Source of the DNA: Acutalibacteraceae bacterium
GTDB lineage: Bacteria; Bacillota; Clostridia; Oscillospirales; Acutalibacteraceae
DNA: 64,000 bases
NCBI GenBank assembly: GCA_045539955.1
Contig: JAZQGI010000011.1
Span: 16,832-80,831 of the forward strand
Direction: 5' to 3'
Positions within the stretch are counted from its first letter, which is position 1, and every line of letters starts with the position of its first letter. The notes beneath the pieces are model-generated. The model made no database searches and had not been told where the DNA came from. It worked only from the letters and a program-made list of their open reading frames with translations. Below are positions 852-20,983 of the stretch, one piece after another. Made by a program: the position numbers and the translations under genes.

Positions 852-1034
852 TTACTGTTGTTCGCTTCCGTCATAATTTAGGAAGTTTTGGTATTCTTTA
901 GTTATAGTCTGCAAGTCCTGTTGGAGCTTTGCCGAAGATTTTTTTGCCTTAATCGGCGGCTCTTTTCTGACACCCGCAAAAAAACCGATTAAAAAGACAA
1001 ACAATGCAGTAAATATTACTGTTAAAACTGTCAT
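852..1034 (-). CDS. small single-pass membrane protein (phage block)
   Basis: 60-aa ORF with an N-terminal hydrophobic helix (VLTVIFTALFVFLIGFFAGV). Its start overlaps the terL stop (ATGA-type overlap at 1031-1034), suggesting coupling. Confidence 0.4.
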   Translation of the reverse strand: MTVLTVIFTALFVFLIGFFAGVRKEPPIKAKKSSAKLQQDLQTITKEYQNFLNYDGSEQQ

Positions 1035-2338
1035 AAGTCCCAGCCTCCGTTAAAATCTCTTTTATCAATTCCGCTTACATATCCTTGACTTCGCTTCTGC
1101 TTTTGCGGTTTGAAATATTTTACATCCTCAAAAGCATACCTCAGCGCATCACAAAGGTGGTTTTCACTGTCCTTTGGCATTTTAAGTCCGTTTTCGGTTC
1201 GCTTATCATCATAAACATAAGATGATAGTTCTCTTATCATATTTACACAAGCAGGACTGACTGTAATCTGGTATTCACAAATTGCCGAAATTCCGTTAAG
1301 GATACTGTCCCGCCCTTTAACCGACGGAGTAATTCTTCCAATTCCCAAACGGCGTAAATCGTCATTTGACTTTGGCTCTGCACAGTCTGCGCGAATGCGT
1401 TCTTTACTAAAGCCCATTTCTTTAATTTTTTGGGCAATATCGCAGTTTAGCATACGCGTCTTATAAAATTCACTGTAAATATATATCTGTTTAAGTATGG
1501 GGTTAGCTTTAAAAGCAACAAATGCAGTCGGGTCGTTTGTATAACCGTAGTCAAGCCCGAAAAAGCTTTTCCACATATACTCCTCTTCTCTTGGTATAGA
1601 GATTTTCCCTACCGACCAATTTTCAAACACCAGTCCCTCGGAAATACCCCAATTCCCAAGACCTGCAACTTCATACTTTCTCCTGTTTGTTTTTTTCATT
1701 CTTTCAAAAACAAGCCTATCCGTTTCATCAAGAAATTCATTACAAAGATAATTCGTTGAAAATGTTTCAACATCAGGAGAAGCAGAATCAAAAAAGCGTT
1801 TTTTCAGCCAGTGCGTGTCACTCCACGGGTTAAATGTAAGAGTGGTCTGCTTATATAAAGGGGCTGGTACCAATCCCCTTGGCACAGAAAGATCAAGCTT
1901 ATCAAAATCGGCTTCATTAGCAATTTCAAAGGCTTCCTCAATCCATACATAATTGAGATACCCTCTTGAAACCGTGGTTGAAGCTAATTTCAAAACATCG
2001 TCAAAGCCACGAAAAATTATTTTTTGTCCCGTCGGCTTGTAAACCATTTCTAAGGGTGAGACGGTATTACTCCAATATTTTGAAACGCCAAGTCTTTCCT
2101 GTGCCCATTTAAGCTGTGCAAAAGTGCTGTCACGATGGGTGTTCATTACCTGACGCACAACTAACAGATTACTCTCCTTTTCTTTCATAAGCCTGAAAAT
2201 AAAGTTTAGTGCCGTAGTGGCTGATTTTTTGGAACCCTTACCGCCTTTAAGTACACGGTAACGCTTTTTACAATTCCAAAATTTTTCATAACCTTGTCCG
2301 ACAATTGCCGAAATTTTAATCTCGGATGTCGTCAACAA
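1031..2338 (-). CDS. phage terminase large subunit (PBSX/XtmB-like)
   Basis: 435-aa ORF. Walker-A-like KGGKGSKKS near the N-terminus and an acidic nuclease half. Length and layout are typical of Firmicute phage TerL. Overlaps the upstream terS-like ORF. Confidence 0.8.
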   Translation of the reverse strand: MLTTSEIKISAIVGQGYEKFWNCKKRYRVLKGGKGSKKSATTALNFIFRLMKEKESNLLVVRQVMNTHRDSTFAQLKWAQERLGVSKYWSNTVSPLEMVYKPTGQKIIFRGFDDVLKLASTTVSRGYLNYVWIEEAFEIANEADFDKLDLSVPRGLVPAPLYKQTTLTFNPWSDTHWLKKRFFDSASPDVETFSTNYLCNEFLDETDRLVFERMKKTNRRKYEVAGLGNWGISEGLVFENWSVGKISIPREEEYMWKSFFGLDYGYTNDPTAFVAFKANPILKQIYIYSEFYKTRMLNCDIAQKIKEMGFSKERIRADCAEPKSNDDLRRLGIGRITPSVKGRDSILNGISAICEYQITVSPACVNMIRELSSYVYDDKRTENGLKMPKDSENHLCDALRYAFEDVKYFKPQKQKRSQGYVSGIDKRDFNGGWDL

Positions 2339-6040: not shown

Positions 6041-7051
6041 ATGTCTGAAATTTTAGAAACAAACCAAAAGAAAAAGGTTTTAAGCTGTATACAGCCGAGC
6101 GGTATGTTAACACTCGGTAACTATTTAGGCGCTTTAAAAAACTGGGTGGCTATGCAAGACGAATTTGACTGCACCTTTGCAGTAGCCGATTTACACGCTA
6201 TCACGGTAAGACAGGAGCCTGCAAAGCTTCGCGCTCAAATTTATTCTACATACGCTTTGCTTTTGGCTCTCGGTATAGACCCCGAAAAGCACACCCTTTT
6301 CATCCAGTCACACGTGCCCGAACACGCAGGGCTTAGTTGGTTGCTTTCCTGTAACACACAGTTTGGCGAGATGTCACGTATGACTCAGTTTAAGGATAAA
6401 TCAGCAAAGCACGCAAACAATGTAAATGTGGGTCTTTTCTCCTACCCTGTGCTAATGGCGGCTGATATTTTACTCTATAAGCCTGATTTAGTGCCTGTAG
6501 GCGCTGACCAGAAGCAACACCTTGAAATTGCGCGTGATATTGCCATTCGTTTCAACAATTTATACGGCGATGTATTTACCGTGCCAGATGCTTATATACC
6601 CAAAACAGGCGCACGTGTAATGTCACTTCAGGACCCAACTAAAAAAATGTCTAAATCCGATGATAATCTTAACTCCTGGGTTGCAATACTTGATTCTAAG
6701 GACGATATTATCCGTAAATTCAAGCGCGCTGTAACCGACTCAGAGGCTTGTGTACGTTTCAGCGAAGAAAAGCCCGGTATTTCTAACCTTATGACCATCT
6801 ACTCAGCAATTACCGAAAAATCTATTGCTGATATCGAAAAAGAATTTGAGGGCAAGGGCTACGGCGACTTTAAGATGGCTGTCGGTGAATCGGTAGCAGA
6901 CGCTTTAGCTCCTATTAAATCCTCTTATGACGAGATTATTAAAGATAAAAAAGCATTAGAGGTGCTTTATAAGCAAGGTGCAGAAAAAGCAGAATATGTT
7001 GCACGCAAAACCTATTTTAAAGCAATGAAAAAGGTTGGTTTCGTGTTATGA
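6041..7051 (+). CDS. trpS: tryptophan--tRNA ligase
   Basis: 336 aa. Class I motifs: the HIGH-region equivalent (SGMLTLGNYLGAL) and KMSKS. Confidence 0.95.
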   Translation: MSEILETNQKKKVLSCIQPSGMLTLGNYLGALKNWVAMQDEFDCTFAVADLHAITVRQEPAKLRAQIYSTYALLLALGIDPEKHTLFIQSHVPEHAGLSWLLSCNTQFGEMSRMTQFKDKSAKHANNVNVGLFSYPVLMAADILLYKPDLVPVGADQKQHLEIARDIAIRFNNLYGDVFTVPDAYIPKTGARVMSLQDPTKKMSKSDDNLNSWVAILDSKDDIIRKFKRAVTDSEACVRFSEEKPGISNLMTIYSAITEKSIADIEKEFEGKGYGDFKMAVGESVADALAPIKSSYDEIIKDKKALEVLYKQGAEKAEYVARKTYFKAMKKVGFVL

Positions 7052-7980: not shown

Positions 7981-8819
7981 CAGAAGTTGTATCAGTAAAA
8001 TTTAAAGATACTGGCAAAGCATACTTTTTCTCCCCTGCAGGCAAAACTGTCAGCGTGGGTGATAAGGTAATTGTCGAAACCCAGAACGGTAACGAAATGG
8101 GTGTTATTGCCGAAGCAAATCATCAAGTAGGTGATGAAGAATTAGTTTCGCCACTTAAAAAAATACTCCGCATAGCTACCGAAAAGGATTTAAAAAGAAT
8201 TGAAGATAATAAAAAGAAAGCCGAAGATGCTTTTAAAATCTGCGAAGAGCAAATTGAGCAGCACAAGCTTGATATGAAGCTTGTTGATGTGGAATATTCT
8301 TTCGACGGCAGTAAGATTGTCTTCTTTTTCACATCTGACGGCAGAGTTGACTTCCGCGAACTTGTAAAAGACCTTGCCGCTAAATTCCATACAAGAATTG
8401 AACTTCGCCAGATAGGTGTTCGTGATGAAGCAAAGATGCTTGGCGGTATCGGTATATGCGGTCAACCCTATTGCTGTAAGCGTTTTTTAAACGACTTCGA
8501 ACCTGTTTCAATCAAGATGGCAAAAGAACAAGGACTTTCACTTAATCCTACCAAAATTTCTGGCAGCTGCGGAAGACTTATGTGTTGCCTTAAGTATGAA
8601 GAGGATGCCTACAGCCATTTAGCTTCCATCACACCCCGTGTTGGCGCCACTGTAAAAACTCCTGACGGCTTGGGCACTGTTACAGATGTAAACCTTGTCA
8701 CAGGAAATCTTTATGTTAAGCTTCACGACAGCGAAATAATGCCAATTAAAATACACAGGGATAATGTAGAACGTGTTTCTTCTCCTAAAAAACCGAATAA
8801 ATCACAAAATAACCAATAA
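7977..8819 (+). CDS. ricT: PSP1-domain protein RicT/YaaT (stage 0 sporulation / RNA maturation complex)
   Basis: PSP1 signature including the Cys cluster CGQPYCCKRFL...SGSCGRLMCCLKYE. Start placed at ATG 7977 (GGAGG 6 nt upstream, overlaps the holB stop) rather than the track start 7932. Confidence 0.85.
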   Translation: MTEVVSVKFKDTGKAYFFSPAGKTVSVGDKVIVETQNGNEMGVIAEANHQVGDEELVSPLKKILRIATEKDLKRIEDNKKKAEDAFKICEEQIEQHKLDMKLVDVEYSFDGSKIVFFFTSDGRVDFRELVKDLAAKFHTRIELRQIGVRDEAKMLGGIGICGQPYCCKRFLNDFEPVSIKMAKEQGLSLNPTKISGSCGRLMCCLKYEEDAYSHLASITPRVGATVKTPDGLGTVTDVNLVTGNLYVKLHDSEIMPIKIHRDNVERVSSPKKPNKSQNNQ

Positions 8820-8914
8820 TTTTACAAATTTTTAACTTGTATAAAATTTCCCTTGATTTTTAGGATATTTAGAGTTAAAATGTATTATAGTAAATCTACG
8901 GAGGTGTTACTAAG

Positions 8915-9085
8915 ATGGCTTATGTAATTTCTGACGCTTGCATCAGCTGCGGCGCTTGTGCTTCAGGTTGCCCTGTTGACGCTATTGCTGAAGGCGCAAC
9001 TCAATACGAAATCGATGCTGACAAATGCTGTGACTGCGGTGCTTGTGCTGCTGGTTGTCCGGTTGACGCTATTTCTGAAGGCTAA
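8915..9085 (+). CDS. fdx: 2x[4Fe-4S] ferredoxin (56 aa, below the ORF-track cutoff)
   Basis: ATG 8915 with GGAGGTG SD. Translates MAYVISDACISCGACASGCPVDAIAEGATQYEIDADKCCDCGACAAGCPVDAISEG, giving two CxxCxxCxxxCP motifs. Followed by a terminator. Confidence 0.9.
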   Translation: MAYVISDACISCGACASGCPVDAIAEGATQYEIDADKCCDCGACAAGCPVDAISEG

Positions 9086-9118
9086 TCTCTACATATTAAG
9101 AGAAACCTTGTGAATCAA

Positions 9119-9150
9119 CGCCTTTACAGTTTGCTGTAAAGGTGTTTTTT
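9119..9150 (+). terminator. intrinsic terminator after the ferredoxin gene
   Basis: Stem CGCCTTTACAG/CTGTAAAGGTG, loop TTTG, then T6. Confidence 0.75.
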
Positions 9151-9212
9151 CGACCTTTTTCACTTGACAAAAAATATAATTATTTGTAATCTATTTAAGG
9201 GGGGTGCATTCC

Positions 9213-9671
9213 GTGGAAAACACTAAAACCATAACAACAAACAAAAAAGCCTTTCACGAATATTTTGTTGTGGAAAGCTTTGAATGCGGAATTGCGCTTT
9301 CAGGCACTGAAATCAAATCAATCCGCCAAGGCGGAGTGAATCTTAAGGATGCTTGGTGCAGTGTTGATGATGGTGAAATGATTATAAAACAAATGCATAT
9401 AAGTCCTTATGACCACGGCAACAGGTTTAATAAACCGCCTGCCAGAAACCGTAAGTTGCTACTTCACAAGCGTGAAATTATGCGGCTTTTAGGAGCTGTC
9501 AAGCAAGACGGTATGGCTTTAGTGCCGTTGTCACTTTATTTCAAGGGTTCACTTGTAAAGGTTCAGTTAGGGCTTTGTAAGGGTAAAAAACTTCACGATA
9601 AGCGCGAAACCGCCGCTAAGCGCGATGCTAACCGCGCAATCGATAGAGCACTAAAAGAACAAAACCGTTAA
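9213..9671 (+). CDS. smpB: SsrA-binding protein SmpB
   Basis: NKKAFHEY...GTEIKS...LLLHKREI signature. Start set to GTG 9213 (8 nt after the GGGGGG SD); the track start 9204 lies too close to the SD. Confidence 0.9.
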   Translation: MENTKTITTNKKAFHEYFVVESFECGIALSGTEIKSIRQGGVNLKDAWCSVDDGEMIIKQMHISPYDHGNRFNKPPARNRKLLLHKREIMRLLGAVKQDGMALVPLSLYFKGSLVKVQLGLCKGKKLHDKRETAAKRDANRAIDRALKEQNR

Positions 9672-9755
9672 TATCCGTTTCGCAAAGCGAAACACCTTAA
9701 CTCTTCACTATTCACTTTTAACTTTTCACTAAGATTATGAAATAATTTTATATAT

Positions 9756-10102
9756 GGGAGTGTAAAGGTTTCGACAGGGATTTAGAAGTATGGGAAGCGA
9801 GCAGCGGTGCGGAACCGCTATAAAATCCGCATAAAAAATTAACTAACAACAATAAAGTTGCTTTAGCTGCCTAATTAGGCGGCTCGTCGAACCTTAGAGT
9901 ACCACGGCTAAGGCAAGGCGTCGATTTAGTGGTGAACGTGAACAGCGGGTTGTTCCCCCTGCTGTCAGGAAATTAGGAACTACCAAGCAAAACAGTCGGT
10001 CGCTTGACGGTTTTGTAAGGGAATGTAAATTTGCGACTGCGCTCGGAGAGACCTATATGGAAAAATTTTTGGACAGGAGTTCGATTCTCCTCACTTCCAC
10101 CA
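9756..10102 (+). ncRNA. ssrA: tmRNA (ssrA)
   Basis: 5' GGGAGUG pairs with 3' CACUUCC before ACCA. A T-arm GGAGTTCGATTCTCC is present. The internal tag reading frame ends ...NNNKVALAA-TAA (gtt gct tta gct gcc taa at about 9858-9875). Located immediately downstream of smpB. Confidence 0.9.
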
Positions 10103-10103
10103 G
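10087..10103 (+). repeat. att direct repeat, copy 1 (3' end of ssrA): CTCCTCACTTCCACCAG
   Basis: Identical 17-mer found again at 16358-16374 on the same strand. Confidence 0.8.
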
Positions 10104-10107
10104 AAAA

Positions 10108-10142
10108 AGACCTATGCTTTGTATCAAAGCATAGGTCTTTTT
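10108..10142 (+). terminator. intrinsic terminator of ssrA
   Basis: Stem AGACCTATGCTTT/AAAGCATAGGTCT, loop GTATC, then T5. Confidence 0.8.
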
Positions 10143-10169
10143 CAACGAAATAAATCCCTTGCGAGATTT

Positions 10170-10324
10170 GTGAAATACGCTTCGCGTGTGAAATATTGCT
10201 TTGCAATGTGAAATGCCTGTTGGCATGAGAGGATTTATTTTATTTCACTTGATGCGTCAGCATCAAATTTCACGATTTGCACAGTTAATTATTTCACATT
10301 TTGCTTAACAGCAAAATATTTCAC
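10170..10324. repeat. array of seven GTGAAAT heptamers (3 forward, 4 inverted) interleaved with short palindromes
   Basis: GTGAAAT at 10170, 10188 and 10208. ATTTCAC at 10242, 10267, 10291 and 10318. Most spacers are palindromic (ACGCttcGCGT, ATTGCtttGCAAT, TTGATGCgtcaGCATCAA, ATTTTGCttaacaGCAAAAT). Confidence 0.7.
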
Positions 10325-10371
10325 TTTTCAAATTAGGGGCCAACTAAACGATTTAGAATTAAGTGCCGAAG

Positions 10372-10405
10372 TTCCACCAAAAAAGACTTGCTTTTCAAGT
10401 CTTTT
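10372..10405 (+). repeat. second, degenerate copy of the tmRNA 3' end plus a hairpin terminator
   Basis: TTCCACCA-AAAAAGAC matches ssrA TTCCACCAGAAAAAGAC with a 1-nt gap. Followed by hairpin GACTTG-CTTTT-CAAGTC and T4, the same layout as the genuine ssrA end. Confidence 0.45.
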
Positions 10406-10554
10406 CTTGTATTTGTGCCTAAAGGACACAACATCCTTTTTCGCATATCAAAAACATCAGTTACCTTTTAAGGTAACATCGTTGAGTTATATTACACACC
10501 TCACATCACAAGCAATTTATATTATTGCACACAAATTTTGCACGAACAATATAA

Positions 10555-10582
10555 CAAAAAGCAGGCTTATTTAAACCTGCTT
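10555..10582 (-). terminator. intrinsic terminator at the tmRNA-proximal end of the island operon
   Basis: Minus sense: AAGCAGG-tttaaataag-CCTGCTT followed by TTTTTG. Confidence 0.6.
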
Positions 10583-10789
10583 CACTAGTTGCATTGTTTT
10601 CTTTTTGGCTTCCTGCTGCGTCTTGCTCTCCTCTACCAAAGGTATTGCTCTCTTGGCTACTTCTTCCTTCTTGTTCGACTCTATACTGCCGAAAAGAAGC
10701 ATTATTTCGTCTATTATCGAGTCTGAGATATTCTTCTCCGTACATTTTTTCAATAGTTTCGTACGGTAATGGCTTTCGCTGATACTCAT
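10571..10789 (-). CDS. hypothetical 72-aa helical, charged protein (alternative frame)
   Basis: MSISESHYRTKLLKKCTEKNISDSIIDEIMLLFGS... Stop TAA lies in the loop of the terminator hairpin at 10559-10582, the placement expected for a genuine 3' end. Confidence 0.35.
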   Translation of the reverse strand: MSISESHYRTKLLKKCTEKNISDSIIDEIMLLFGSIESNKKEEVAKRAIPLVEESKTQQEAKKKTMQLVKQV

Positions 10790-10884
10790 TCTTTATTATC
10801 CTTTCTTGTATCATTGATATATCGGAACTATCTCCCTTTACAATTCTCACAATCTTTGTGATTTCAGGGTTTTCAATAGTTCCC

Positions 10885-11625
10885 TTAACATACATAATTA
10901 TAAGCCTCATCACCATTACGCATTGTAATTTGAGTCCTTTTGAATATACAACATTGTTTTTTCTCTGAAAATCGTTCATTAAATTCTGGGATATGTGATT
11001 TATACCATGTATTAAACTCATTAACATTCAATGTACTACCGTTTAAAAAAACATATTGACACAACGATATCCCATTTAGATAATCATATTCATATGTCAA
11101 TAATGTTTTTCTTCCAAAAAAATCAACAAAATATTTTGGAAGCCAATTATTTGGTATAATAATAAAAGGTTTTGAACTTTGTCTGATAGAATCATCACAA
11201 AAAACAAAATCTTCTAAAAGATTTCCTGAACACATACCAATTTTCTCTAGAACGTTATCAAAAATCGCAGTTTCTAAATACCCCTCGGCGGTCCCATCAC
11301 AAAAAACAACTTCTAACGGTGGGTATTGCCCAATTTTAAAACTTTGAACATAGTGATATGGATTATCAAAATGACTATCTTTTATTTTTTCTTCATTGCG
11401 AATAGCAAATACATTTCCCGAAATAATTACACCCAACCGATAATAACTAACAATTATTTTATAACGATTATCTATTTTCAAATGTTTAAAAAATTTTACA
11501 ACTTCCGTTATATCGGCATATATTATGTTGTTATCTTTCACACGGCTAATGAATTTTCCGATAGTTTCATTTCTAAAATTATTTAATTTTTCTTTTAATA
11601 GACTAATATCATATTGCAAATCCAT
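10885..11625 (-). CDS. hypothetical 246-aa protein, AT-rich (candidate partner or immunity protein of the giant ORF)
   Basis: ATG 11625 with AAGGGTGA SD. No recognisable motif, no TM segment and no signal peptide. About 95 nt downstream of the giant ORF on the same strand. Confidence 0.55.
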   Translation of the reverse strand: MDLQYDISLLKEKLNNFRNETIGKFISRVKDNNIIYADITEVVKFFKHLKIDNRYKIIVSYYRLGVIISGNVFAIRNEEKIKDSHFDNPYHYVQSFKIGQYPPLEVVFCDGTAEGYLETAIFDNVLEKIGMCSGNLLEDFVFCDDSIRQSSKPFIIIPNNWLPKYFVDFFGRKTLLTYEYDYLNGISLCQYVFLNGSTLNVNEFNTWYKSHIPEFNERFSEKKQCCIFKRTQITMRNGDEAYNYVC

Positions 11626-11719
11626 AATTGTCACCCTTATTTTAAAAACTTACAGTGCCATTTTAAAAAATAATTATAACATTAATAACATCAATTTGCA
11701 AGTTTTCATACATAATAAC

Positions 11720-14700
11720 TTATGTATAATCATTATTGACAGTAGGCTCATTATTGAGTATAATGTCATTAGAAGATGAACCATCAAGGGCCCGAGAGCC
11801 CACCACGGCTATTATTTTAGCTGAAGATGGAACATCTTCTTTTATTTTACCAACATTATAAACTGTAGCAAATGTTCCATTGTGACCAATCGAGAAGCGA
11901 ATTTTATAATATTGACCATCAAAATCTTCAAAGTAAGCCGTACGGTACTCGAAACCGTCTTTAGCAAAATCGTGATTCTTCTCATCGTTGGTCAACGGCT
12001 TATTTTCTTTTAATGCCGTTTCAGCAATTTCCGTTTTATTAACCTTCTTACCATTTACGGTATCTTCCCAAATATCCTCTGCTGTCCCGTTTCCGACCGC
12101 TTTATCGGCTTTTTCAAGCGCCTTTTCGTCCGATATCACTTCATACGAAAAATCACCAAGCAACACCTTTTCTTCCATACCCTCAAGCATTTCATCGGTC
12201 AAGGTGCCCGTTTCAATTATGGTGCGGGTAAATCTTTTAGTAGGCTTATCTTCGGCAACAGCCCGCGGTGTAGCAATAGGCGCTTTAGCATTTTCACCTT
12301 GCGGTAACATACCGTAGGTTTCGTTTGCTTCACCCCAAAGCCTGTCGGTTTCTTCAAGGTATTCTTCTTTTGTTATCTCGCCGCTCTCATACTTTTTAAG
12401 GTTGTCCCTCATTTGCTGAGCAGGGGAGCCAAGAGAGAACGAACCCTCACCGTTTTCTTCTGAATCGGAATAATCTTGAGTTTCATTGGATATATTATTC
12501 TTGACATCATCCTCTTCATCGAGTATAATGTCATTGGAAGAGATTTCGTTGATACTGCCCTCGTATTGGACTTGGGGAGTGCCTTGCGGAATCTCTTCCG
12601 TTTTGTTTTCAATTATTCTTCCTTCGTTTTTTGCGGTCAAAATATATTTTTCAATATTCTTTTTACCATAAGCAGAAGTAACAATGTGTGCATCAAGCAT
12701 TTTATTACCATTCAACGTAACGGTATTAATAGCAATAATAGAAAGAATAGAATTGCCTTTTTTATCAACAGTTTGTAATGCAAGTTCTATTTTCCCATCT
12801 TTTTTAGATTTCATAATATGCTTTGGATTTTTAAAAGACTCTAATGCCTCTTGAAGTCCCTCTACACCAAGGTTATGATAATTTATTCCTTGGCCACGAT
12901 ATTTTCCCGTTTCTTTACTATGCATAGATAAATAGGCATCTCGGTAATTCATTGCTATAGGATAGTTGTACAGAACTATATTATTTTTTTGAAGTAAATT
13001 TATAAACTCAGTGGAAAATTCACCAACATATACATATCGCTGTTCAAAAGATTCAGAAGTTTCGTAGGCATCTTTTAACTGCTCATTCAAAGTTTCCGCA
13101 TTTGGATTAAAAGCATTAGCACCTGTTTTTCTTAAGCAATACATAACCCCACCGCTATTTTTAGCGGCTTTTTTTGTATCCCTTGAATCAAACACTCTGC
13201 CGAGTCGCTTTTCGATATACTCAAGGTCCTCTACAAGTCTTTTGTTTTGGTTTACACCCTTAAAACTTGCAATAAGGTCCTTTATCCAGTCAATAATCTT
13301 TTCGAACCATTTGCGGTCGGTTTCAGTAAGGCTTTCAAATTCCGAAAGCGTATCTTCGATATCATAAATGGCTTCGAGATTACCGTCCGAAAGATGCTGC
13401 GCCACATTTCTGCGGTTACCCTTAAATAATATTTCGGAAATAAAGTCAGCAACCATTTCGTGCTGTGCTGATTCTAAAGTAAATCCCTTTTTAAATTTTT
13501 CGGTAAAACTGCCGTTCTGCACATCATCAATATAAAGCTGTGCCAAAGCCTGTAACGCTTCTTCACGAGTTCCCTTAAATTCAGTTTTGTATTTTGCTTT
13601 AAGCTGTGCTCTCGCATACCCTTCAAAAGAAGAACTGTTATGGAAAAGATAATTTTTAAGACCTTGATAAGCGCCTCTGCTTTCAAGCCTGTGGATACAT
13701 TCGTGCTTAAATAATTGGAAATATGATTCAACAGCCGAATTGTCTTTTGATAAATACATTGTGTTGCTCTCACGCATATAAACGCCATTTTTACCCGAAA
13801 GCACCTTGGCGTCCTTACTAACAAACACAACCTTCATACCGCTGTCGAGCTTTTTAGCAACATCAAGAATATGCCTTTGCTTAGCGTTTTTCATTTCCCC
13901 GAACATAGCCTCGTTATATTCTTCAGCCGTCGGCTCACGATGTATCTCTTGGTCACTCGGCTCACTAAGCCCATACTCACCGCTCTCGGATGATGTAGTT
14001 TCATTTTCAGGCATAAAATTAGCAGGCACTTCCGTGTCTGCTTCTGTATTTTTTGATTTAGTTGTAGCGGAATTTACGCCTTGAGACCTGCTTCCTTGAA
14101 CTTTTTGCGAAGTTCTTTCATATACTCCTCGCTGTCCTCGTGCATAAAGGTTTCCAACATTTTCTGATGCTTTGATAAATTTGGGGCTTTGGCCTCGTTC
14201 GACGTCATTTGAGTAGTGCGAGTATCCATCTATAAATCCCTCCATATTTATTATTTTATTAAAGTTTTGGGTTGGTGTATTACCGTAGGCTTTTATTACC
14301 TGCGGCGGAATATATCTGCCCGTTTCAACATAACGATTAAGTGCTCTTCCTAAAGCCTTATTATTAGATAATTCGTTTAAATGTAAATAAACCGAATAAC
14401 CATTTTGCTTCAACAATTCAATTTTCGCAACCAAAGAATTTACTTTATTGCCACCTACTATCGGCCATACTATATTATCACCGTTTTTAATAGATTCAAT
14501 CAATACTTGGTCAATAATGTTTTGACTTTCGCGGTGAACTGCATTAGCACCTAAACCATTATCAAATTCTGGCAATTCCTCTTTTGCCATATCGCTGTCA
14601 ATAACTCTTGAAGAATTCATTTCTGAAAGAGGATTTACAAGAACACTCGACTTGCCCGCAGCGGATAATCCTATAACAATGTCCGCACGATGTTCTTGCT

Positions 14701-16345
14701 TGACATCACCATTATACACCTCTTTGCCGTTTTCGTCAACACCTGAATAGCTTCCATTTTTTAAAAGTTTATCAGCAACTTGTCGGCGTAATTTTTGACG
14801 TTCTGGCGTATTAACAGTATATGTTTCAGGTCTGCTTGCTGCTTCTTCTGCAACCTCTTTTATTTGCGGAATATTTTCTATCTCTTCCACCGAAACATTT
14901 TCATCTTGAAATAAACGGTCGATAATATTTTTTAATTCCGGCGAAGCAACAATTTTTGAGGGTGTATTTATTCTAATGTCAGTTTCTGGTTCCTCTGTTT
15001 TATGAGTGTTATCATCATATGCCCTTCCGCTCTCGGATGATGGAGTTTCATTTCCAGGCATAAAATTAGCAGACTCTGTAAAGTCTGCTTTCATATCATT
15101 ATTAAATTTATTTACAGCTTCTACAACTGCTCCCCAGTCGTTAAACATACCGCCAAAGGTCTGTTGTGCAAATTCAGGGTCAGAAAGTACAAATTGATTT
15201 ATATACGCCACAATTTCACGCATAAAAATCGGGTATGTGCTTACATCTTCAATATCATACTTACCATTAAAGTAATTTTTATTTATCTCTTCTGCTACTT
15301 TTTTATATGCATCAGAAGAATAATCAACTTCATCGCAAAGCACTGCCTCATACTCGCTATATGCAGGATTATTTGTTTTATCTGCTACATGCACTTTTTC
15401 ATGGTCGAAAGTTTGTTTTGCTGGCAAAGACGATTCACTAGATACATATACCGTTCCGTCAGGAGCAGTAAAGGCTTCCGTACGAGTAACCGTAACACCG
15501 TTTGCCGTTCTCTCTATCGGTCCTTGGCAATATATCGCCTTAATACCCGCATTTACAAAAGCAGTGTACACTTTATATCCGTCAGTACCGTTTTCATTAC
15601 CTTCGGTAAAAGTAACACTGCTGTTTTTAGTGTGGTTTATTCGAATTCGTCTCGGTGCTTCTCCCGTGCCTCCTGAAAGAATTTCCGCCTTTCCTCCTTG
15701 GACATATCCATCAATGGTTTCGTTACTTTTTCCCATCTGGCTTTCTCTTCCGGTGTTAATTCCCGTTTCATTGCTTCCGTCCATTCTTCCTTGGTTATAT
15801 ATTCGCTCATCTATATCAACTCCTGTTTCTTGATTATTATTCATTATACCAGCATTACCGACATTTTGCAACCGTTCGGCAATACTTTGCTTTTCCGTTC
15901 TCTGTTGTGGTGTCAACTGAGCATCAGGAGTATTAAGCAACTGACTCTCCGCTTCGGTTAAACCAACTTCCCCACCATATTCCTGTGGCTGTAATTTTGA
16001 ATTTTGAGCCGTGTTAAATGTTGTAGCATTCCGTATAATAGCTTCAGTCTTCTCAAGTGAAGACAATTGAGCGTTCATACCTTCAGCCCAAGCTTCGCTA
16101 TTTTTAATTTCAGTTATAATCTGCTGTGCTTTGGTATTCTTACCAATATCTTCAGCATTAGCGGTTTCAATTTTACCGTTTGTAGCAACTTGTGTTAAAT
16201 AATTTGAAAGCTTTTGCGTGGTTTTAAAATCAACACCGAGGTCTTGCGCACGTTCACCGACTGCGGTTTTTATAACCGCTCCTTTTTGTGCCGAAACATC
16301 AGACATCACTTGAACCGCCAAACCGCCGATTTTTGCAGTAGACAT
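11720..16345 (-). CDS. 1541-aa multi-module 'polyvalent'-type protein: two HExxH zincin-like modules, a Zeta-toxin-like P-loop kinase module and further unassigned modules
   Basis: Single uninterrupted ORF. HEKVH is encoded at 15389-15403 and HECIH at 13691-13705, in two paralogous contexts (G.VY..ES...L...S....F.HE..H). Walker A IVIGLSAAGKSS at 14651-14671 is followed by a Zeta-toxin-like segment (RVIDSD...). Start set to ATG 16345 (MSTAKIGG) rather than the track's TTG at 16477. Confidence 0.8.
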   Translation of the reverse strand: MSTAKIGGLAVQVMSDVSAQKGAVIKTAVGERAQDLGVDFKTTQKLSNYLTQVATNGKIETANAEDIGKNTKAQQIITEIKNSEAWAEGMNAQLSSLEKTEAIIRNATTFNTAQNSKLQPQEYGGEVGLTEAESQLLNTPDAQLTPQQRTEKQSIAERLQNVGNAGIMNNNQETGVDIDERIYNQGRMDGSNETGINTGRESQMGKSNETIDGYVQGGKAEILSGGTGEAPRRIRINHTKNSSVTFTEGNENGTDGYKVYTAFVNAGIKAIYCQGPIERTANGVTVTRTEAFTAPDGTVYVSSESSLPAKQTFDHEKVHVADKTNNPAYSEYEAVLCDEVDYSSDAYKKVAEEINKNYFNGKYDIEDVSTYPIFMREIVAYINQFVLSDPEFAQQTFGGMFNDWGAVVEAVNKFNNDMKADFTESANFMPGNETPSSESGRAYDDNTHKTEEPETDIRINTPSKIVASPELKNIIDRLFQDENVSVEEIENIPQIKEVAEEAASRPETYTVNTPERQKLRRQVADKLLKNGSYSGVDENGKEVYNGDVKQEHRADIVIGLSAAGKSSVLVNPLSEMNSSRVIDSDMAKEELPEFDNGLGANAVHRESQNIIDQVLIESIKNGDNIVWPIVGGNKVNSLVAKIELLKQNGYSVYLHLNELSNNKALGRALNRYVETGRYIPPQVIKAYGNTPTQNFNKIINMEGFIDGYSHYSNDVERGQSPKFIKASENVGNLYARGQRGVYERTSQKVQGSRSQGVNSATTKSKNTEADTEVPANFMPENETTSSESGEYGLSEPSDQEIHREPTAEEYNEAMFGEMKNAKQRHILDVAKKLDSGMKVVFVSKDAKVLSGKNGVYMRESNTMYLSKDNSAVESYFQLFKHECIHRLESRGAYQGLKNYLFHNSSSFEGYARAQLKAKYKTEFKGTREEALQALAQLYIDDVQNGSFTEKFKKGFTLESAQHEMVADFISEILFKGNRRNVAQHLSDGNLEAIYDIEDTLSEFESLTETDRKWFEKIIDWIKDLIASFKGVNQNKRLVEDLEYIEKRLGRVFDSRDTKKAAKNSGGVMYCLRKTGANAFNPNAETLNEQLKDAYETSESFEQRYVYVGEFSTEFINLLQKNNIVLYNYPIAMNYRDAYLSMHSKETGKYRGQGINYHNLGVEGLQEALESFKNPKHIMKSKKDGKIELALQTVDKKGNSILSIIAINTVTLNGNKMLDAHIVTSAYGKKNIEKYILTAKNEGRIIENKTEEIPQGTPQVQYEGSINEISSNDIILDEEDDVKNNISNETQDYSDSEENGEGSFSLGSPAQQMRDNLKKYESGEITKEEYLEETDRLWGEANETYGMLPQGENAKAPIATPRAVAEDKPTKRFTRTIIETGTLTDEMLEGMEEKVLLGDFSYEVISDEKALEKADKAVGNGTAEDIWEDTVNGKKVNKTEIAETALKENKPLTNDEKNHDFAKDGFEYRTAYFEDFDGQYYKIRFSIGHNGTFATVYNVGKIKEDVPSSAKIIAVVGSRALDGSSSNDIILNNEPTVNNDYT

Positions 16346-16357
16346 TTTACCGCTTTG

Positions 16358-16374
16358 CTCCTCACTTCCACCAG
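16358..16374 (+). repeat. att direct repeat, copy 2: CTCCTCACTTCCACCAG
   Basis: Exact 17/17 match to the ssrA 3' end at 10087-10103. Confidence 0.8.
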
Positions 16375-16477
16375 TGGCAAGCTGCCACACCCAATCCGTA
16401 ACAAAGTCGTGTGCTAATCTTAAATTAGCGACTCGACCAAAAGATTCGGATTTGAGTGGTAAGGCTCCACCAAACAA

Positions 16478-16510
16478 AATAAAAACCGCTTAAATAAGCG
16501 GTTTTTATTT
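16478..16510. terminator. bidirectional hairpin terminator
   Basis: AACCGCTTA-aat-TAAGCGGTT flanked by A-rich and T-rich runs. Lies downstream of the lipoprotein gene (minus). Confidence 0.7.
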
Positions 16511-16544
16511 TTTATGCACGAATTGTGCACGAATTATTAAGTTA

Positions 16545-17042
16545 TTACTTTATCTTCACATTTTTAAACACAATCTCAATCACATTTGGTTGGGTCCAAA
16601 TTTTAATCGGCAAGCCGCTTGCACCCAGCTCAAAACGGTAGCTAAAGTCAGCAGTTACACCCTCGATATAAAAAACATCATTTTCTTTTGAAACCTCACC
16701 GTCTGATTTAGACAAAACCTCATAAATTAAATGAGCGGCGGTTTTTTCAAAAGTCTTATTATCGTTTATATATTGCACTCCATTAAATTCTGCGCAAACA
16801 CCGTTCTTTGAAAATAAATACTTTAGTCCCTCAATTTCTGAAGGATACTTAAATTCAATAATTGCTTCTCCGTTTTTTTGAACTTCACAATCACATTCGT
16901 AAGTTTCGTTATAGTATACGATTTCGCACGAAAATGAAATTCCCTTTGTAACAGGCTCAATCTGTGTACTTTTCGCCCCGCAACCTGATAACAAAATCAC
17001 AGCCAACAAAACAGAAAATATTCTTTTCAAGCTATCACCCAT
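16545..17042 (-). CDS. lipoprotein of unknown function
   Basis: Signal peptide with lipobox LLSGC (MGDSLKRIFSVLLAVILLSGCGA). 165 aa. Confidence 0.7.
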   Translation of the reverse strand: MGDSLKRIFSVLLAVILLSGCGAKSTQIEPVTKGISFSCEIVYYNETYECDCEVQKNGEAIIEFKYPSEIEGLKYLFSKNGVCAEFNGVQYINDNKTFEKTAAHLIYEVLSKSDGEVSKENDVFYIEGVTADFSYRFELGASGLPIKIWTQPNVIEIVFKNVKIK

Positions 17043-18487
17043 TAAAGTGCTTCGATTATATCACTTGGCAATAATGCGCTTTCTCCCTTAATTTTCGCAA
17101 CCTTATCAGCCGTAGCGCTATGAACATAAACGGCCGACTTTACCGCTTCTAAAACATCAAGCCCTTGCGCCAAATAAGATACAATAATACCTGCCAATAC
17201 GTCCCCGCTGCCTCCCGTTGCCATTCCGCTGTTGCCACAGGTATTAAAAAATACCTGACCGTCGGGCGAAGATATAAGCGTATTTGTGCCTTTGAGTGCA
17301 ACAAAACAGTTATATTCTCTTGCAAAATCAATAGCAACTTTTATACGGTTTTCTTCAATTTCCTTAATTGAACACCCTAAAAGACGTGACATTTCCGCAG
17401 GGTGCGGAGTTAAAATAATCGGAGCATCAGTTTTCTTTAATACATTTATATTCGAAACTAATGCGTTTATGCCATCGGCATCAACTACTGTGGGTACTTT
17501 GGTTTTTAAAAGAAGTTTTTTCACAAGACGCCGAGTGCTTTTTCTGTTCCCTATTCCGCAACCAATAAGCACCGCTGTTGCCTTTTGTAAAGGCTTCTCT
17601 AAATCAATATTGCCTTTAAAAGTTCCCTTTAAAGTCTGCCTTGCAATAACACAAACCGCCTCAGGCACAGCACAGGTGAGAATTTTGTAAATACCTTTAG
17701 GTATAACACATTTTGCAATACCTACACCACTTCTAAGACACGCTCTTGCTGACAAAATAGCCGCACCAGCCATACCGTAGCTTCCGCAAAACATTACCGC
17801 GGTGCCAAAGGTGCCTTTATGTGAATTCTTTGGGCGTTTTATCGGTTTTGGTTCTTCGATTGTTTGGTATTTATAACAGCTTGGTTTAACACCAATATCT
17901 GCAACTATAACTTCGCCCGTAAAATCAGAAGCAATCGGAAGCATAAAACAAGGCTTTAGTGCAATAAAGGTGACCGTTAAATCAGCATTAATACACCCAC
18001 CCATCACTCGACCGCTGTCACACTCAATCCCAGACGGGATATCTACAGCCACTCTCGTTGCTTTTTGAGAATTTATTTGGTTTATAATTTCAATAACCTC
18101 TGGCGACAATTCCCTGTCAAGACCGATGCCGAAAAGCGCATCTATAATAACATCATATTCACTGTCTATAGTTTCTTTTTTCTCTACACCCGAAAGAGCT
18201 GAATAATAATGTCTTGCAGAATTAGTCGACGGCTCACCCAAAGGGGTTATAACTGTAACATCGGCGCCGCCTTGCGCAAAATTTTGCGCTATAACAAAAC
18301 CGTCGCCGCCATTATTTCCCTTGCCGCAGACAACAGCTATTTTCTTATTATTAATATCTACATTTTCACATATAATTTTATAAGCGGTATCTCCCGCTTT
18401 TTTCATAAGACTCAGAAAAGAAAATGCGCCGCTTTGGACAGCATTTTCTTCGGAAAGCTTTATTAAATCCTTAGTCAATACATCCAT
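17042..18487 (-). CDS. nnr: bifunctional NAD(P)H-hydrate repair enzyme (epimerase / ADP-dependent dehydratase)
   Basis: N-terminal YjeF_N (GKGNNGGDGFV) plus a C-terminal carbohydrate-kinase domain (GGSGDVLAG). Start at ATG 18487 with AGGGTG SD. Confidence 0.85.
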   Translation of the reverse strand: MDVLTKDLIKLSEENAVQSGAFSFLSLMKKAGDTAYKIICENVDINNKKIAVVCGKGNNGGDGFVIAQNFAQGGADVTVITPLGEPSTNSARHYYSALSGVEKKETIDSEYDVIIDALFGIGLDRELSPEVIEIINQINSQKATRVAVDIPSGIECDSGRVMGGCINADLTVTFIALKPCFMLPIASDFTGEVIVADIGVKPSCYKYQTIEEPKPIKRPKNSHKGTFGTAVMFCGSYGMAGAAILSARACLRSGVGIAKCVIPKGIYKILTCAVPEAVCVIARQTLKGTFKGNIDLEKPLQKATAVLIGCGIGNRKSTRRLVKKLLLKTKVPTVVDADGINALVSNINVLKKTDAPIILTPHPAEMSRLLGCSIKEIEENRIKVAIDFAREYNCFVALKGTNTLISSPDGQVFFNTCGNSGMATGGSGDVLAGIIVSYLAQGLDVLEAVKSAVYVHSATADKVAKIKGESALLPSDIIEAL

Positions 18488-18499
18488 ACGGCACACACC

Positions 18500-19012
18500 C
18501 TACTTAAAAGCACTATTCGCAATAAATTTGGGTAAAAACTTTATTATCGCGCTCTGCATTTTCTCGTTTGGAGAAAACACGATATATTCCGCGCTTTTAC
18601 CCTCTTTTTCATAAACCAAAAGATACGCCCCGTCATCCTTTTCATTACAGGCGATCACAAGATTTTTTTTATCAATATTATTAAGCAAAGCTATATTGAA
18701 CTTTTCAAGCCTTGAAACACTGGCAAGTTCAAAGCTTGATAAACGCTTGCGGCTCGATTTATTAACAATTTTATCGATATCCATCGTACCGTTAGTTACT
18801 ATATATTCATACTCTATATTAAGCATACCGGAAAGCTTATACGCACCGTATATAATGCCCGCCATTAAAAGCACAAATATTGAACCTATATATCCCGAAT
18901 ACATAAAAACCAAAAAACAAAGCAATAAAGCCAAAAGCCATATTCCTATAAGTGCTACAATCAACTTTGCGTTTTTCTTAACTGCTACAATTTGTTCGAA
19001 GAAGGTATCCAT
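18500..19012 (-). CDS. membrane protein of unknown function (two TM helices)
   Basis: 170 aa with two adjacent hydrophobic helices (aa ~17-60) followed by a soluble domain. Confidence 0.6.
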   Translation of the reverse strand: MDTFFEQIVAVKKNAKLIVALIGIWLLALLLCFLVFMYSGYIGSIFVLLMAGIIYGAYKLSGMLNIEYEYIVTNGTMDIDKIVNKSSRKRLSSFELASVSRLEKFNIALLNNIDKKNLVIACNEKDDGAYLLVYEKEGKSAEYIVFSPNEKMQSAIIKFLPKFIANSAFK

Positions 19013-19068
19013 ATATTTACTCCAATGCTAAAATTTATATATTTATTATACACCAAAACCCCTTTCAC

Positions 19069-19097
19069 TTGCAATAGTTAAAATTTTAGTATATAAT
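19069..19097 (+). promoter_or_regulatory. sigmaA-type promoter (TTGCAA-17-TATAAT) of the PqqD-like/ABC pair
   Basis: -35 at 19069-19074, -10 at 19092-19097, about 20 nt before the SD and ATG at 19118. Confidence 0.5.
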
Positions 19098-19117
19098 GTT
19101 AAAAAAGAGGTGTTAAA

Positions 19118-19363
19118 ATGAAGCTAAAAAACGGATACAGTCTTGTCAAACACGATGATTCATATATAATCGAGCCACTCAAAAAAACAGTGGTCTTAAG
19201 TGATATTGGCGTATTTTTGTGGAATAAGACTATCAACAAAGATTTAAGCAACAGCGAATTACTTGATTTATTACTTAACAATTTCGAGATATCTACCGTT
19301 TTAGCTTTAGGTGAAATTGACACCTTTATTAAAAAATGTAAAGAAAACGGAATTTTAGAATAA
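19118..19363 (+). CDS. PqqD-family (RiPP-recognition-element-like) small protein
   Basis: 81 aa. The pattern L....D.SYII.P......LSDIGVFLWN......S..EL...L...FE.......EID.FI..C.ENGILE matches the usual PqqD-family layout from memory. Confidence 0.55.
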   Translation: MKLKNGYSLVKHDDSYIIEPLKKTVVLSDIGVFLWNKTINKDLSNSELLDLLLNNFEISTVLALGEIDTFIKKCKENGILE

Positions 19364-20982
19364 TGAAAAAAGGAAATAACAAAGCCACGCTTAAATGGGT
19401 TTACAAAATTTTTAAAAAATTCATCCCCTCAACTGCGCTTATGTGTTTTTTCTCGGTGTTGGTTTCGCTCTCTTTTGTATGGTTAGCCTTTCTTTCAAAA
19501 AATGTTTTAGAACTTGCAACTGGTGAACAGACAGGCAGTTTTGGGAAATACACTCTGCTACTTTTAGCAATAATAATAGCGCAAGTCTTGATTTCAGGAT
19601 TAAATTCAATTTTAAAAACTTCGATAAGCGGTAAATTTACAATATCCTTACGGGAACATTTATTTTCAGTACTCAACTGTAAAAAATATTCCGAAACGCA
19701 AAGGTACCATTCTGGTGATATTCTCAATCGCTTCACATCAGATACAGATATAATTGTCAGTAACACTGTTTCCATCCTGCCTGATATTTTTTCAATGTTA
19801 GCCAAGATAATAGGCGGTACAGTCGCATTAATTTCACTTGAACCGACCATTGCTTTGGTTGTCTTATTTTTTGGTATTTGTATACCCGCTGTGGGCAGAA
19901 TTTTTAATAAAAGATACAAGCATCTTCATAAAGAATGTCAAAAAACCGAAGGTATAACACGTTCTTTTTTGCAGGAATGCTTTGAAAATAGAATTGTTAT
20001 TAAAACTTTTAATAGCGAAGTTCCGTTTATACAAAGATTAAAGCAATATATGTCAGAAAACTACCGTTTTAAAATCAAACGCGCATACATAACTGTTTTT
20101 TCACATTTAAGTCTCTATTCTTTTTTCACTCTCGGTTATTACGCAATTTTAATCTGGGGCGCAATGCAAATTTCTAACGGCGCCATTACTTTCGGTATGC
20201 TGATGGCTTTCTTGCAATTAGTTTCACAATTAAGGTTACCGTTACAAAATATATCAAGCATTTTCCCTAAATATTATTCAATAATAGCATCTGCAGAAAG
20301 ACTTGTAGAATTAGAAGAATTACAAAACGAAGAAATTCCAAGTATAAAACACGATATCGCTTTTGACTTTATTTGTGGTGAAAATATCACCTTTTCTTAC
20401 GATGATAAACCAATTTTAAAGGACTTTAATTTCAAAATTAAAAGCAACAGTATTACTGCAGTAACAGGCGCTTCGGGTAACGGAAAAAGTACACTTTTTA
20501 AACTGATTTTAGGGCTATACGAATTACAAAACGGCAGTATTAAAATCAATGGTAACCTAATAGCAGATTCTACTACTCGCCACCTCTTCGCTTATGTTCC
20601 GCAAGGTAATATGATATTATCGGGCAGTATTAGGGATAACATTACAATGTGCAACCCCAACATCTTAGAAAGTGATATTATTTCCGCCTGCAAAACTGCT
20701 GAAATTCATGATTTTATTACAACACTCAAAAACGGTTATGACACTATTTTATCAGAACGCGGAGAAGGTCTTTCGCAGGGACAGATTCAGCGTCTCTCAA
20801 TAGCGCGGGCTTTACTTGTAAACTCACCTGTGCTTCTCTTGGACGAGGCCACCTCAGCGCTCGATAAAGATACTGAACTACGCGTACTAAAAAACATAAA
20901 AGCGCTTAAAAATAAGACAGTCATACTCGTTACCCATCGAAAAACAAGTGTTGATTTTTGTGACAATATCATAAATATTTAA
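19363..20982 (+). CDS. ABC exporter, fused permease and ATPase (half-transporter)
   Basis: 539 aa. Six-TM N-terminal domain, Walker A GASGNGKST, signature LSQGQIQR and Walker B LLLLDEATS. ATGA-type overlap with the PqqD-like gene. Confidence 0.85.
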   Translation: MKKGNNKATLKWVYKIFKKFIPSTALMCFFSVLVSLSFVWLAFLSKNVLELATGEQTGSFGKYTLLLLAIIIAQVLISGLNSILKTSISGKFTISLREHLFSVLNCKKYSETQRYHSGDILNRFTSDTDIIVSNTVSILPDIFSMLAKIIGGTVALISLEPTIALVVLFFGICIPAVGRIFNKRYKHLHKECQKTEGITRSFLQECFENRIVIKTFNSEVPFIQRLKQYMSENYRFKIKRAYITVFSHLSLYSFFTLGYYAILIWGAMQISNGAITFGMLMAFLQLVSQLRLPLQNISSIFPKYYSIIASAERLVELEELQNEEIPSIKHDIAFDFICGENITFSYDDKPILKDFNFKIKSNSITAVTGASGNGKSTLFKLILGLYELQNGSIKINGNLIADSTTRHLFAYVPQGNMILSGSIRDNITMCNPNILESDIISACKTAEIHDFITTLKNGYDTILSERGEGLSQGQIQRLSIARALLVNSPVLLLDEATSALDKDTELRVLKNIKALKNKTVILVTHRKTSVDFCDNIINI

Positions 20983-20983
20983 A

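Follow-up and report, generated by a model that had tools for sequence, protein, structure and literature searches.

A segment of DNA has been inserted at the 3' end of ssrA, the transfer-messenger RNA (tmRNA) gene, in a metagenome-assembled genome (MAG) of the Acutalibacteraceae (Oscillospirales). The stretch analysed here, called the window, comprises 64,000 nucleotides (64 kb) of contig JAZQGI010000011.1. We interpret positions 10103-16472 of the window as a decayed and non-autonomous prophage-derived remnant within a stack of insertions at ssrA, and give this interpretation a probability of about 0.72. The evidence comes from empty sites in relatives, from several copies of the tmRNA 3' end that lie in direct orientation downstream of the gene, and from truncated phage genes between these copies. 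The repeats and their chromosomal flanks are as follows.

9204..9671, + strand: smpB, the left chromosomal flank (Pfam SmpB, E 2.5e-60).
9756..10102, + strand: ssrA, the intact tmRNA gene (Rfam RF00023, 151.8 bits, model positions 1-374).
10087..10103, + strand: left copy of a 17-bp repeat, the last 16 nt of ssrA plus one base (G).
16358..16374, + strand: right repeat copy (17 bp), a tmRNA 3' fragment displaced from ssrA and oriented like it.
16545..17042, - strand: lipoprotein gene, the right chromosomal flank (open reading frame (ORF) call; syntenic with nnr in L002, L091 and L093-L098).

The repeated 17-mer, CTCCTCACTTCCACCAG, begins at the first base past the T-loop (TTCGATT, 10080-10086) and spans the 3' strand of the T-stem, the 3' acceptor strand, the terminal ACCA and one further base (G). 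It has exactly two copies in the whole window, each of them on the + strand. Allowing as many as two mismatches adds no site in the window, and 100 shuffles gave 0 matches. The exact direct repeat at the ssrA 3' end, reported in a preliminary description of this DNA, is confirmed by these counts. The full-length tmRNA gene at 9756-10102 (RF00023) represents the regenerated tRNA or tmRNA gene (tDNA) end of the island. ARAGORN made no tmRNA call in the window or in L001, though the Rfam scores are 147-152 bits; it did call the tmRNA genes of L005 and L009.

Relatives of the window, which belongs to an Oscillospirales (Acutalibacteraceae) MAG, were located by a genome scan with the window SmpB as an anchor. 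Two metagenome contigs of the same species, L093 and L221, originate from two different samples, and in both of them ssrA, ending in ...CTCCTCACTTCCACCA, is directly joined to AATGCAATAAAAACCGC, the terminator found at 16483-16510 of the window. The left flank of L093 is 98.4% identical to the window and the right flank 96.6% identical. Measured against this same-species empty allele, the inserted DNA is 10103-16472 (6,370 bp), which also takes in approximately 100 nt to the right of the right 17-mer. In another species, L002 (SmpB 95% identical), only about 140 bp separate the collinear counterparts of window regions 8471-10103 and 16546-20983, and what comes after ssrA is homologous to the window right of 16374; this is the empty site that had been predicted. 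The site is also empty in a third species (L094-L096), so that empty sites are found on six contigs: L093, L221, L002, L094, L095 and L096. The segment between the repeats is a true strain-variable insertion at the ssrA 3' end, absent from the same site both in the same species (L093, L221) and in other species (L002, L094-L096), and the proposed island in the ssrA 3' end stands. Its presence and absence in alleles of one species make it usable as a marker of strain variation. Exact look-ups of the window smpB and lipoprotein gene products gave no match, probably owing to differing start codons on record.

That the pair of 17-mers is coincidental or an assembly artefact, and that the DNA between them is native chromosome, has a probability close to nil. 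The sole point in its favour is the origin of the sequence from a MAG. It is contradicted by the result of the shuffles, by the homologue of another species' ssrA-downstream sequence that follows the right copy, by the independence of the six empty contigs, and by the fact that the proteins of the segment are all encoded on one 90.8 kb NCBI contig.

The closest relative in GTDB, L001 (SmpB 97% identical), has a different arrangement. A conserved trailer of roughly 70 nt, common to L009, comes after its ssrA; the sites of this ssrA-downstream trailer or element are L001 10905-13627 and L009 10814-10880. Past the trailer, L001 has three ORFs, named by eye as TnpV-like, IS200-like HUH transposase and 399-aa ATPase-like. 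Since L001 carries other ORFs after ssrA, a different element occupies the same site.

The 17-mer pair had been taken to bound one element, which is not the case. Four copies of the tmRNA 3' end are present at the locus in direct orientation, ending at 10102, 10379, 16373 and 16472, and the outer boundary is 16472 rather than 16374. Two of them, copies 2 and 4, are shorter tmRNA ends that are missing from the preliminary description.

Copy 1, ssrA itself, ends at 10102: ...CTTCCACCA, then G, terminator T1 and a convergent Gut-1 pair.
Copy 2, 10371-10379, + strand: GTTCCACCA, then A and terminator T2.
Copy 3, the 17-mer, ends at 16373, + strand: CTCCTCACTTCCACCA, then G and a structured unit.
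Copy 4, 16465-16472, + strand: CTCCACCA, then A and terminator T4.

Each copy is trailed either by G and a unit or by A and a terminator. The four copies suggest, at the level of sequence, that insertions have been stacked at this site. Each insertion would regenerate the gene end and displace older downstream DNA outwards, a principle on which Islander is built. Besides the coding segment, the stack contains several small features.

10103..10143, + strand: terminator T1, the replacement terminator of ssrA (a perfect 19-bp inverted repeat, then a T-run).
10143-10219, + strand, and 10237-10326, - strand: the convergent Gut-1 pair (RF01706).
10343..10379, + strand: short hairpin and tail ending in GTTCCACCA, a possible end of a partial unit.
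10381..10405, + strand: terminator T2, after copy 2 (terminator scan).
16375..16472, + strand: structured unit of approximately 100 nt that ends in CTCCACCA (covariation and model R1).
16471..16516, no strand assigned: terminator T4 (inverted repeat I3), which directly follows ssrA in L093 and L221.

Terminator T1 is absent from the same-species empty alleles L093 and L221, in agreement with the earlier proposal that the insertion supplies ssrA with a new terminator (10103-10143).

The coding part of the segment lies between copies 2 and 3, and its content agrees with the ORFs described previously, including one of 1541 aa.

10554..10901, - strand: fragment B of a polyvalent-protein gene, truncated at both ends (residues 1420-1536 of the homologue P0017).
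10885..11634, - strand: low-GC gene of 246 aa (ATG at 11625) or 249 aa (GTG at 11634) (ORF call).
11720..16345, - strand: fragment A, the 1541-aa ORF (ATG at 16345, stop at 11720-11722), a 5'-truncated polyvalent-protein gene.

The 1541-aa ORF had been regarded as the large cargo gene retained by the island. Instead, it is truncated at its 5' end at the right repeat, and a second fragment is found at 10554-10901. Pfam domains of fragment A are Zeta_toxin (residues 554-697) and MuF_C (residues 1154-1244). Polyvalent proteins of 900-2640 aa are homologous to it and contain PBECR3, ART-PolyVal, LPD (including LPD38) and MuF_C domains. Residue 1 of fragment A aligns to residue 553 of P0002, 211 of P0017, 544 of P0024 and 546 of P0025; this position is internal in all four homologues, hence about 210-550 N-terminal codons are missing from fragment A. 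Fragment A is incomplete at its C-terminus as well: it has no counterpart of the roughly 700-aa module that is conserved there in P0002, P0003, P0004, P0010 and P0012, and its last domain is internal in P0010. DNA homology to L090 extends past the ATG across the 12 nt that separate it from the 17-mer, and ends at the 17-mer edge. Fragment B matches P0017 with 41% identity (tblastn, E 1.3e-21) and has a blastn match to the phage contig L092.

The closest homologues of fragment A belong to prophage tail and lysis (late) modules. P0002 is encoded in L090 among genes for a collagen-like tail fibre, an amidase and an r1t holin, in a prophage that ends at tRNA-Leu, and P0017 adjoins a holin and a tRNA 3' fragment in L092. 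Relatives in phage modules, truncated phage genes and the loss of essential modules are the marks of a defective prophage, and the segment has all of them. A further reading, with attP located in the interior of an intact polyvalent gene, was rejected, since the ssrA-proximal end does not carry the gene's other half and the four homologues are continuous across the breakpoint. The search for relatives of the 1541-aa protein in IMG/VR gave none that could be confirmed.

Expression of the truncated ORF is uncertain, since the terminator and promoter scan detected no promoter-like site upstream of fragment A. A Shine-Dalgarno-like GAGGAG lies 12 nt upstream of its ATG and comes from the reverse complement of the 17-mer, ...GGAAGTGAGGAG. 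The ORF may or may not be expressed. The frame of fragment A stays open upstream through the structured unit to a TTG at 16477.

An orphan polyvalent gene in another genome offers a parallel. In L089 (10001-16933), the gene of P0005 (2310 aa) is located between spoVAD and a cell-wall hydrolase gene with spoIIE. There is no tRNA gene at this locus; P0005 is C-terminally truncated compared with P0004, and its N-terminus begins within an internally repeated segment. Lone fragments of polyvalent genes may be a recurrent residue of prophages.

Recombinase genes were sought in all 42 window ORFs of at least 180 aa (those of the island and 40 others). The island ORFs have no match to integrase, excisionase, replication or transfer families in Pfam, PHROGs, PADLOC or NCBIfam, and these profile searches uphold the earlier observation that integrase, excisionase and replication genes are lacking. 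No recombinase was found among the other 40 ORFs. No island ORF has a PHROG match, so the island contains no recognisable structural, lysis or lysogeny gene. A megablast search of the island against 50,697 phage records returned no match. The exact 17-mer has 8 matches in IMG/VR, all chance occurrences in coding DNA and none of them in a tmRNA context, so no phage attP was found. The predicted circular junction TTTACCGCTTTG-CTCCTCACTTCCACCAG-AAAAAGACC and the right-hand or empty-site junction both have 0 matches in JGI metagenome contigs. Two of the checks proposed in the preliminary description, a search of phage databases and a search for the circular form, revealed neither a parent phage among these records, nor an attP in IMG/VR, nor a junction in the metagenome contigs.

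The same description had left a choice between a decayed element and one mobilised in trans. The evidence backs the former, and direct support for the latter is lacking. If the segment were still functional, it would be a cis-mobilizable element (CIME), or an array of such elements, excised and transferred in trans by an integrase encoded elsewhere or brought in by a phage or an integrative and conjugative element (ICE). We regard this as improbable. It would account for the direct tmRNA-end copies that bound the segment and for same-species alleles that lose the whole array exactly between TCCACCA copies; integrase-less tandem ssrA islands have been proposed as CIMEs (PMC3146451), and the different element after ssrA in L001 indicates that the site is in active use in the clade. 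However, the empty alleles are equally explained as ancestral, the outer repeats share only 7-8 bp, and the right repeat adjoins internal coding sequence of a truncated gene rather than an attachment (att) arm. Moreover, no helper integrase is encoded in the window, and the failure to find the circular junction in JGI metagenome contigs or a tmRNA context at any of the 8 IMG/VR matches also speaks against mobilisation.

A terminase large subunit gene (Terminase_3, Terminase_3C) is present at the left edge of the window (1031-2338, - strand), where it adjoins yfhO. The same terminase-yfhO arrangement is found in L094, from another species. This conserved phage-like region is about 8 kb from ssrA and continues past the window.

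The low-GC gene forms a cassette (approximately 10898-11654, 27-29% GC) between fragments A and B, with a promoter-like site at 11701-11673. Its only close relative is an orthologue in L091, with 83% nucleotide and 78% protein identity; in total, the 246-aa protein has 23 matches (E <= 1e-3) among 1.84 billion representatives. The ratio of nonsynonymous to synonymous substitution rates (dN/dS) between the window and L091 genes is 0.25, hence the gene is maintained by selection. The protein has no match in Pfam, PHROG, PADLOC or NCBIfam, nor in a PDB profile search. An AlphaFold2 (AF2) model is confident, with a predicted local distance difference test (pLDDT) score of 85, yet no Foldseek match was found in PDB or BFVD. 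L091 comes from another species, with flanks about 79% identical to those of the window, and its orthologue is at the same locus, where it adjoins the lipoprotein gene. The large fragment, the 17-mer and the structured unit are all missing from L091, which keeps a 22-nt scrap of the polyvalent-gene 3' end and a homologue of fragment B. If any part of the segment is still useful to the cell, the dN/dS value makes this gene the most likely one.

The polyvalent fragment and its low-GC neighbour could also be viewed as a domesticated conflict module. The truncated polyvalent protein would be a toxin or anti-phage effector, acting through its Zeta-toxin-like kinase, MuF_C and metallopeptidase-like regions, and the 246-aa protein its immunity protein or partner. 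Conflict proteins include both polyvalent proteins and MuF toxins (PMC5512222, PMC5576092), the 1541-codon ORF is intact and includes the Zeta_toxin domain, and the GAGGAG is 12 nt from its ATG. The 246-aa gene is under purifying selection and kept at the same locus in L091, and L089 offers another orphan polyvalent gene in a chromosomal context. Nevertheless we find such a module rather doubtful, even a little more so than mobilisation in trans: L091 has the 246-aa gene without the large fragment, which means that the two are no obligate pair, and two strains of the same species do without the whole segment. Fragment A lacks an upstream promoter-like site, PADLOC gave no match, and the 246-aa protein has no recognisable fold relative.

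Under the preferred reading of a decayed prophage remnant in a stack of insertions, the locus would have the following layout, from ssrA outwards. The replacement terminator and the Gut-1 pair, ending in a short tmRNA-end copy, would be followed by the remnant of a temperate phage, made up of a terminator, the polyvalent C-terminal scrap, the low-GC gene and the 4.6 kb polyvalent fragment. Beyond it would lie the structured unit (about 100 nt), which is older and brings a CTCCACCA copy of its own, and finally the ancestral terminator. We infer that a temperate phage related to the L090 and L092 phages integrated at ssrA with its late-gene end towards ssrA, which would match the orientation towards the target gene at tRNA-Leu in L090. 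A deletion with its right end at the att fragment would then have removed most of the phage: the structural, replication and lysogeny genes upstream as well as the integrase. The integrations were presumably catalysed by site-specific recombinases of phages or other elements that have since been lost. The sequence shows that every insertion regenerated the tmRNA 3' end and provided a terminator, so that ssrA stays functional.

Several observations weigh against this history. Neither the parent phage, nor its attP, nor the integrase was found in the searches of phage records and IMG/VR. Copy 2 (9 nt) and the partial unit before it are weak matches (8.6 bits with model R1). That the deletion stops precisely at the att fragment calls for a special explanation; a recombinase acting at a secondary site, or microhomology with GAGGAG, may be involved. 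Fragment A, at 4.6 kb, is still a single ORF, which is unexpected for old junk and implies either a recent truncation or selection on the fragment. L091 shares part of the remnant at the same locus in another species, perhaps through old vertical inheritance or because related phages were captured independently. Finally, L093 and L221 may be either ancestral or the result of precise losses between TCCACCA copies, and more than one order of events is conceivable.

The structured unit at 16375-16472 has three helices with compensatory changes (RNAalifold). Model R1, which describes it, matches only directly after ssrA, in L002, L003, L004, L007, L008, L050 and the window. The units of these relatives are located at L002 1644-1744, L003 3364-3461, L004 5242-5438 (two tandem copies), L008 10883-10978 and L050 10193-10290; the L007 unit is partial. 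Among close relatives the copy number ranges from 0 to 2 or more, and the unit is absent from the same-species L093 and L221. A second, partial unit may precede copy 2, where 42 nt are 71% identical to 16436-16477 (repeat D3). No Rfam family matched the unit; a permissive threshold produced terminator-driven noise and no partial tmRNA match. A search of IMG/VR with the unit motif gave 2 matches, both chance occurrences in GC-rich genes. From its sequence and predicted structure, the unit could be either a co-transcribed RNA or a miniature insertion.

To our knowledge, Gut-1 (RF01706) is an orphan motif reported from the human gut only. In the window the + copy of the pair scores 72.9 bits (gathering score 50) and the - copy 42.7 bits, which is below the threshold. 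The same pair is present in L005 at 691-868.

Taken further, these observations lead to a speculative alternative, no better in our estimate than the conflict module, in which miniature non-autonomous modules, each of them regenerating ...CCACCA, have settled at the ssrA 3' end in this clade. The modules would be the structured unit of about 100 nt and a segment of about 230 bp with the terminator and the Gut-1 pair; a recombinase acting in trans would have moved both of them along with the phage remnant. If this were true, orphan Gut-1 RNA would represent a terminus or scar left by a mobile element with tDNA or terminators as its target, and not a free-standing small RNA.

Convergent Gut-1 pairs directly past an intrinsic terminator are also seen elsewhere: in addition to window 10143-10326, they occur at L005 620-870, L203 37-520, L206 12967-13260 and L211 418-708, and in L123 and L148. 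In five contexts the preceding terminator follows a tRNA or tmRNA gene or a displaced tRNA 3' fragment. The order in L005 is tRNA 3' fragment, G, terminator and Gut-1, and in L203 it is tRNA-Asn, a 13-nt repeat of its 3' end, G, terminator and Gut-1; in L206 and L211, Gut-1 is 35 nt downstream of tRNA-Ser. The original Gut-1 seed alignment also contains copies past the terminators of protein-coding genes. The association may therefore be with terminators generally, similar to repetitive extragenic palindromic (REP) sequences and bacterial interspersed mosaic elements (BIMEs), rather than with tDNA. The proposal that Gut-1 arrays serve tDNA-integrating elements specifically, as integrase arm sites, is weakened by the same copies after protein-coding genes.

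A Gut-1-like architecture, in which short variable hairpins are split by a constant heptamer to nonamer, also exists with other motifs. An array of TATGTAAT lies past the ssrA terminator in L094 (about 8430-8520), L095 and L096. L092 has a convergent ATCATCA/TGATGAT pair at 6540-6720, after a tRNA 3' fragment and a terminator and downstream of a phage holin. Matches to a loose GTGAAAT-array pattern in IMG/VR were mostly noise and required filtering. The differing array motifs suggest that each genome has a specific motif, which may co-evolve with a binding protein.

The main use of these results is in annotation. The 1541-aa polyvalent protein should be annotated as a truncated remnant and not as a functional phage or ICE effector, and counts of mobile elements should leave the island out. 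The locus adds a case from uncultured gut Oscillospirales (Acutalibacteraceae) to the record of traffic and decay at the tmRNA gene. The by-products of the analysis, namely the unit after ssrA, the placement of Gut-1 and the 246-aa gene, may be more intriguing than the island itself.

Among the known systems, the cryptic prophage remnant CP4-57 of E. coli is a defective phage-derived segment at the ssrA 3' end that has accessory genes, keeps its integrase and can excise. The window remnant, in contrast, has no recombinase and consists of fragments of one phage gene and one accessory gene only.

In the islands identified by Islander, the two ends are marked by a regenerated tDNA and a displaced fragment; such islands can form tandem arrays, and no target is more enriched than ssrA (PMC4383910). 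The window segment resembles these islands in that one end has a regenerated tmRNA gene and the opposite end a displaced 3' fragment with the gene's orientation, in being absent from relatives, in its use of a favoured target and in the stacking of several fragments at one tDNA. Unlike them, it has no integrase, for which the Islander filter would reject it, and its displaced fragment adjoins a truncated coding sequence and not an att arm. In Dehalococcoides, tandem ssrA islands are delimited by a 20-bp repeat, and some without an integration module were proposed to be cis-mobilizable or fixed (PMC3146451). At both loci the ssrA 3' end is repeated several times in direct orientation downstream of the gene, over 20 bp in Dehalococcoides and over 17 bp and 7-9 bp in the window, and the segments vary between strains. 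The Dehalococcoides islands carry rdhA operons, with serine-recombinase modules in most of them, whereas the window segment contains phage-gene wreckage and no recombinase.

The CIMEs of streptococcal ICE families are viewed as products of deletion that build up at one site by accretion (PMC5704250; ICEberg, PMC6323972). The window segment is similar to CIMEs in its att-like flanking repeats and in the absence of recombination and transfer genes, and differs in its prophage rather than ICE origin. By definition, mobilisation of a CIME by the cognate ICE integrase is demonstrated or inferred (PMC5704250; PMC6323972), and here neither a helper integrase in the window nor a circular junction in JGI metagenome contigs was found.

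Polyvalent proteins are large multidomain proteins with conflict-related domains, encoded by phages or conjugative elements (PMC5512222), and MuF toxins combine an N-terminal MuF head-morphogenesis domain with a C-terminal toxin domain and a downstream immunity gene (PMC5576092). Fragment A shares with them the domain types MuF_C and Zeta-toxin-like kinase and the style of linkers, and its homologues lie in prophages. In contrast to complete polyvalent proteins, it lacks 210-550 N-terminal residues and the C-terminal module, and stands alone in the chromosome with no phage around it. In contrast to MuF toxins with their immunity genes, it has MuF_C in mid-protein only (1154-1244) and no N-terminal MuF domain, and its downstream gene also occurs without the large ORF (L091). 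As a whole, a composite remnant at a classical hot spot is a known sort of feature.

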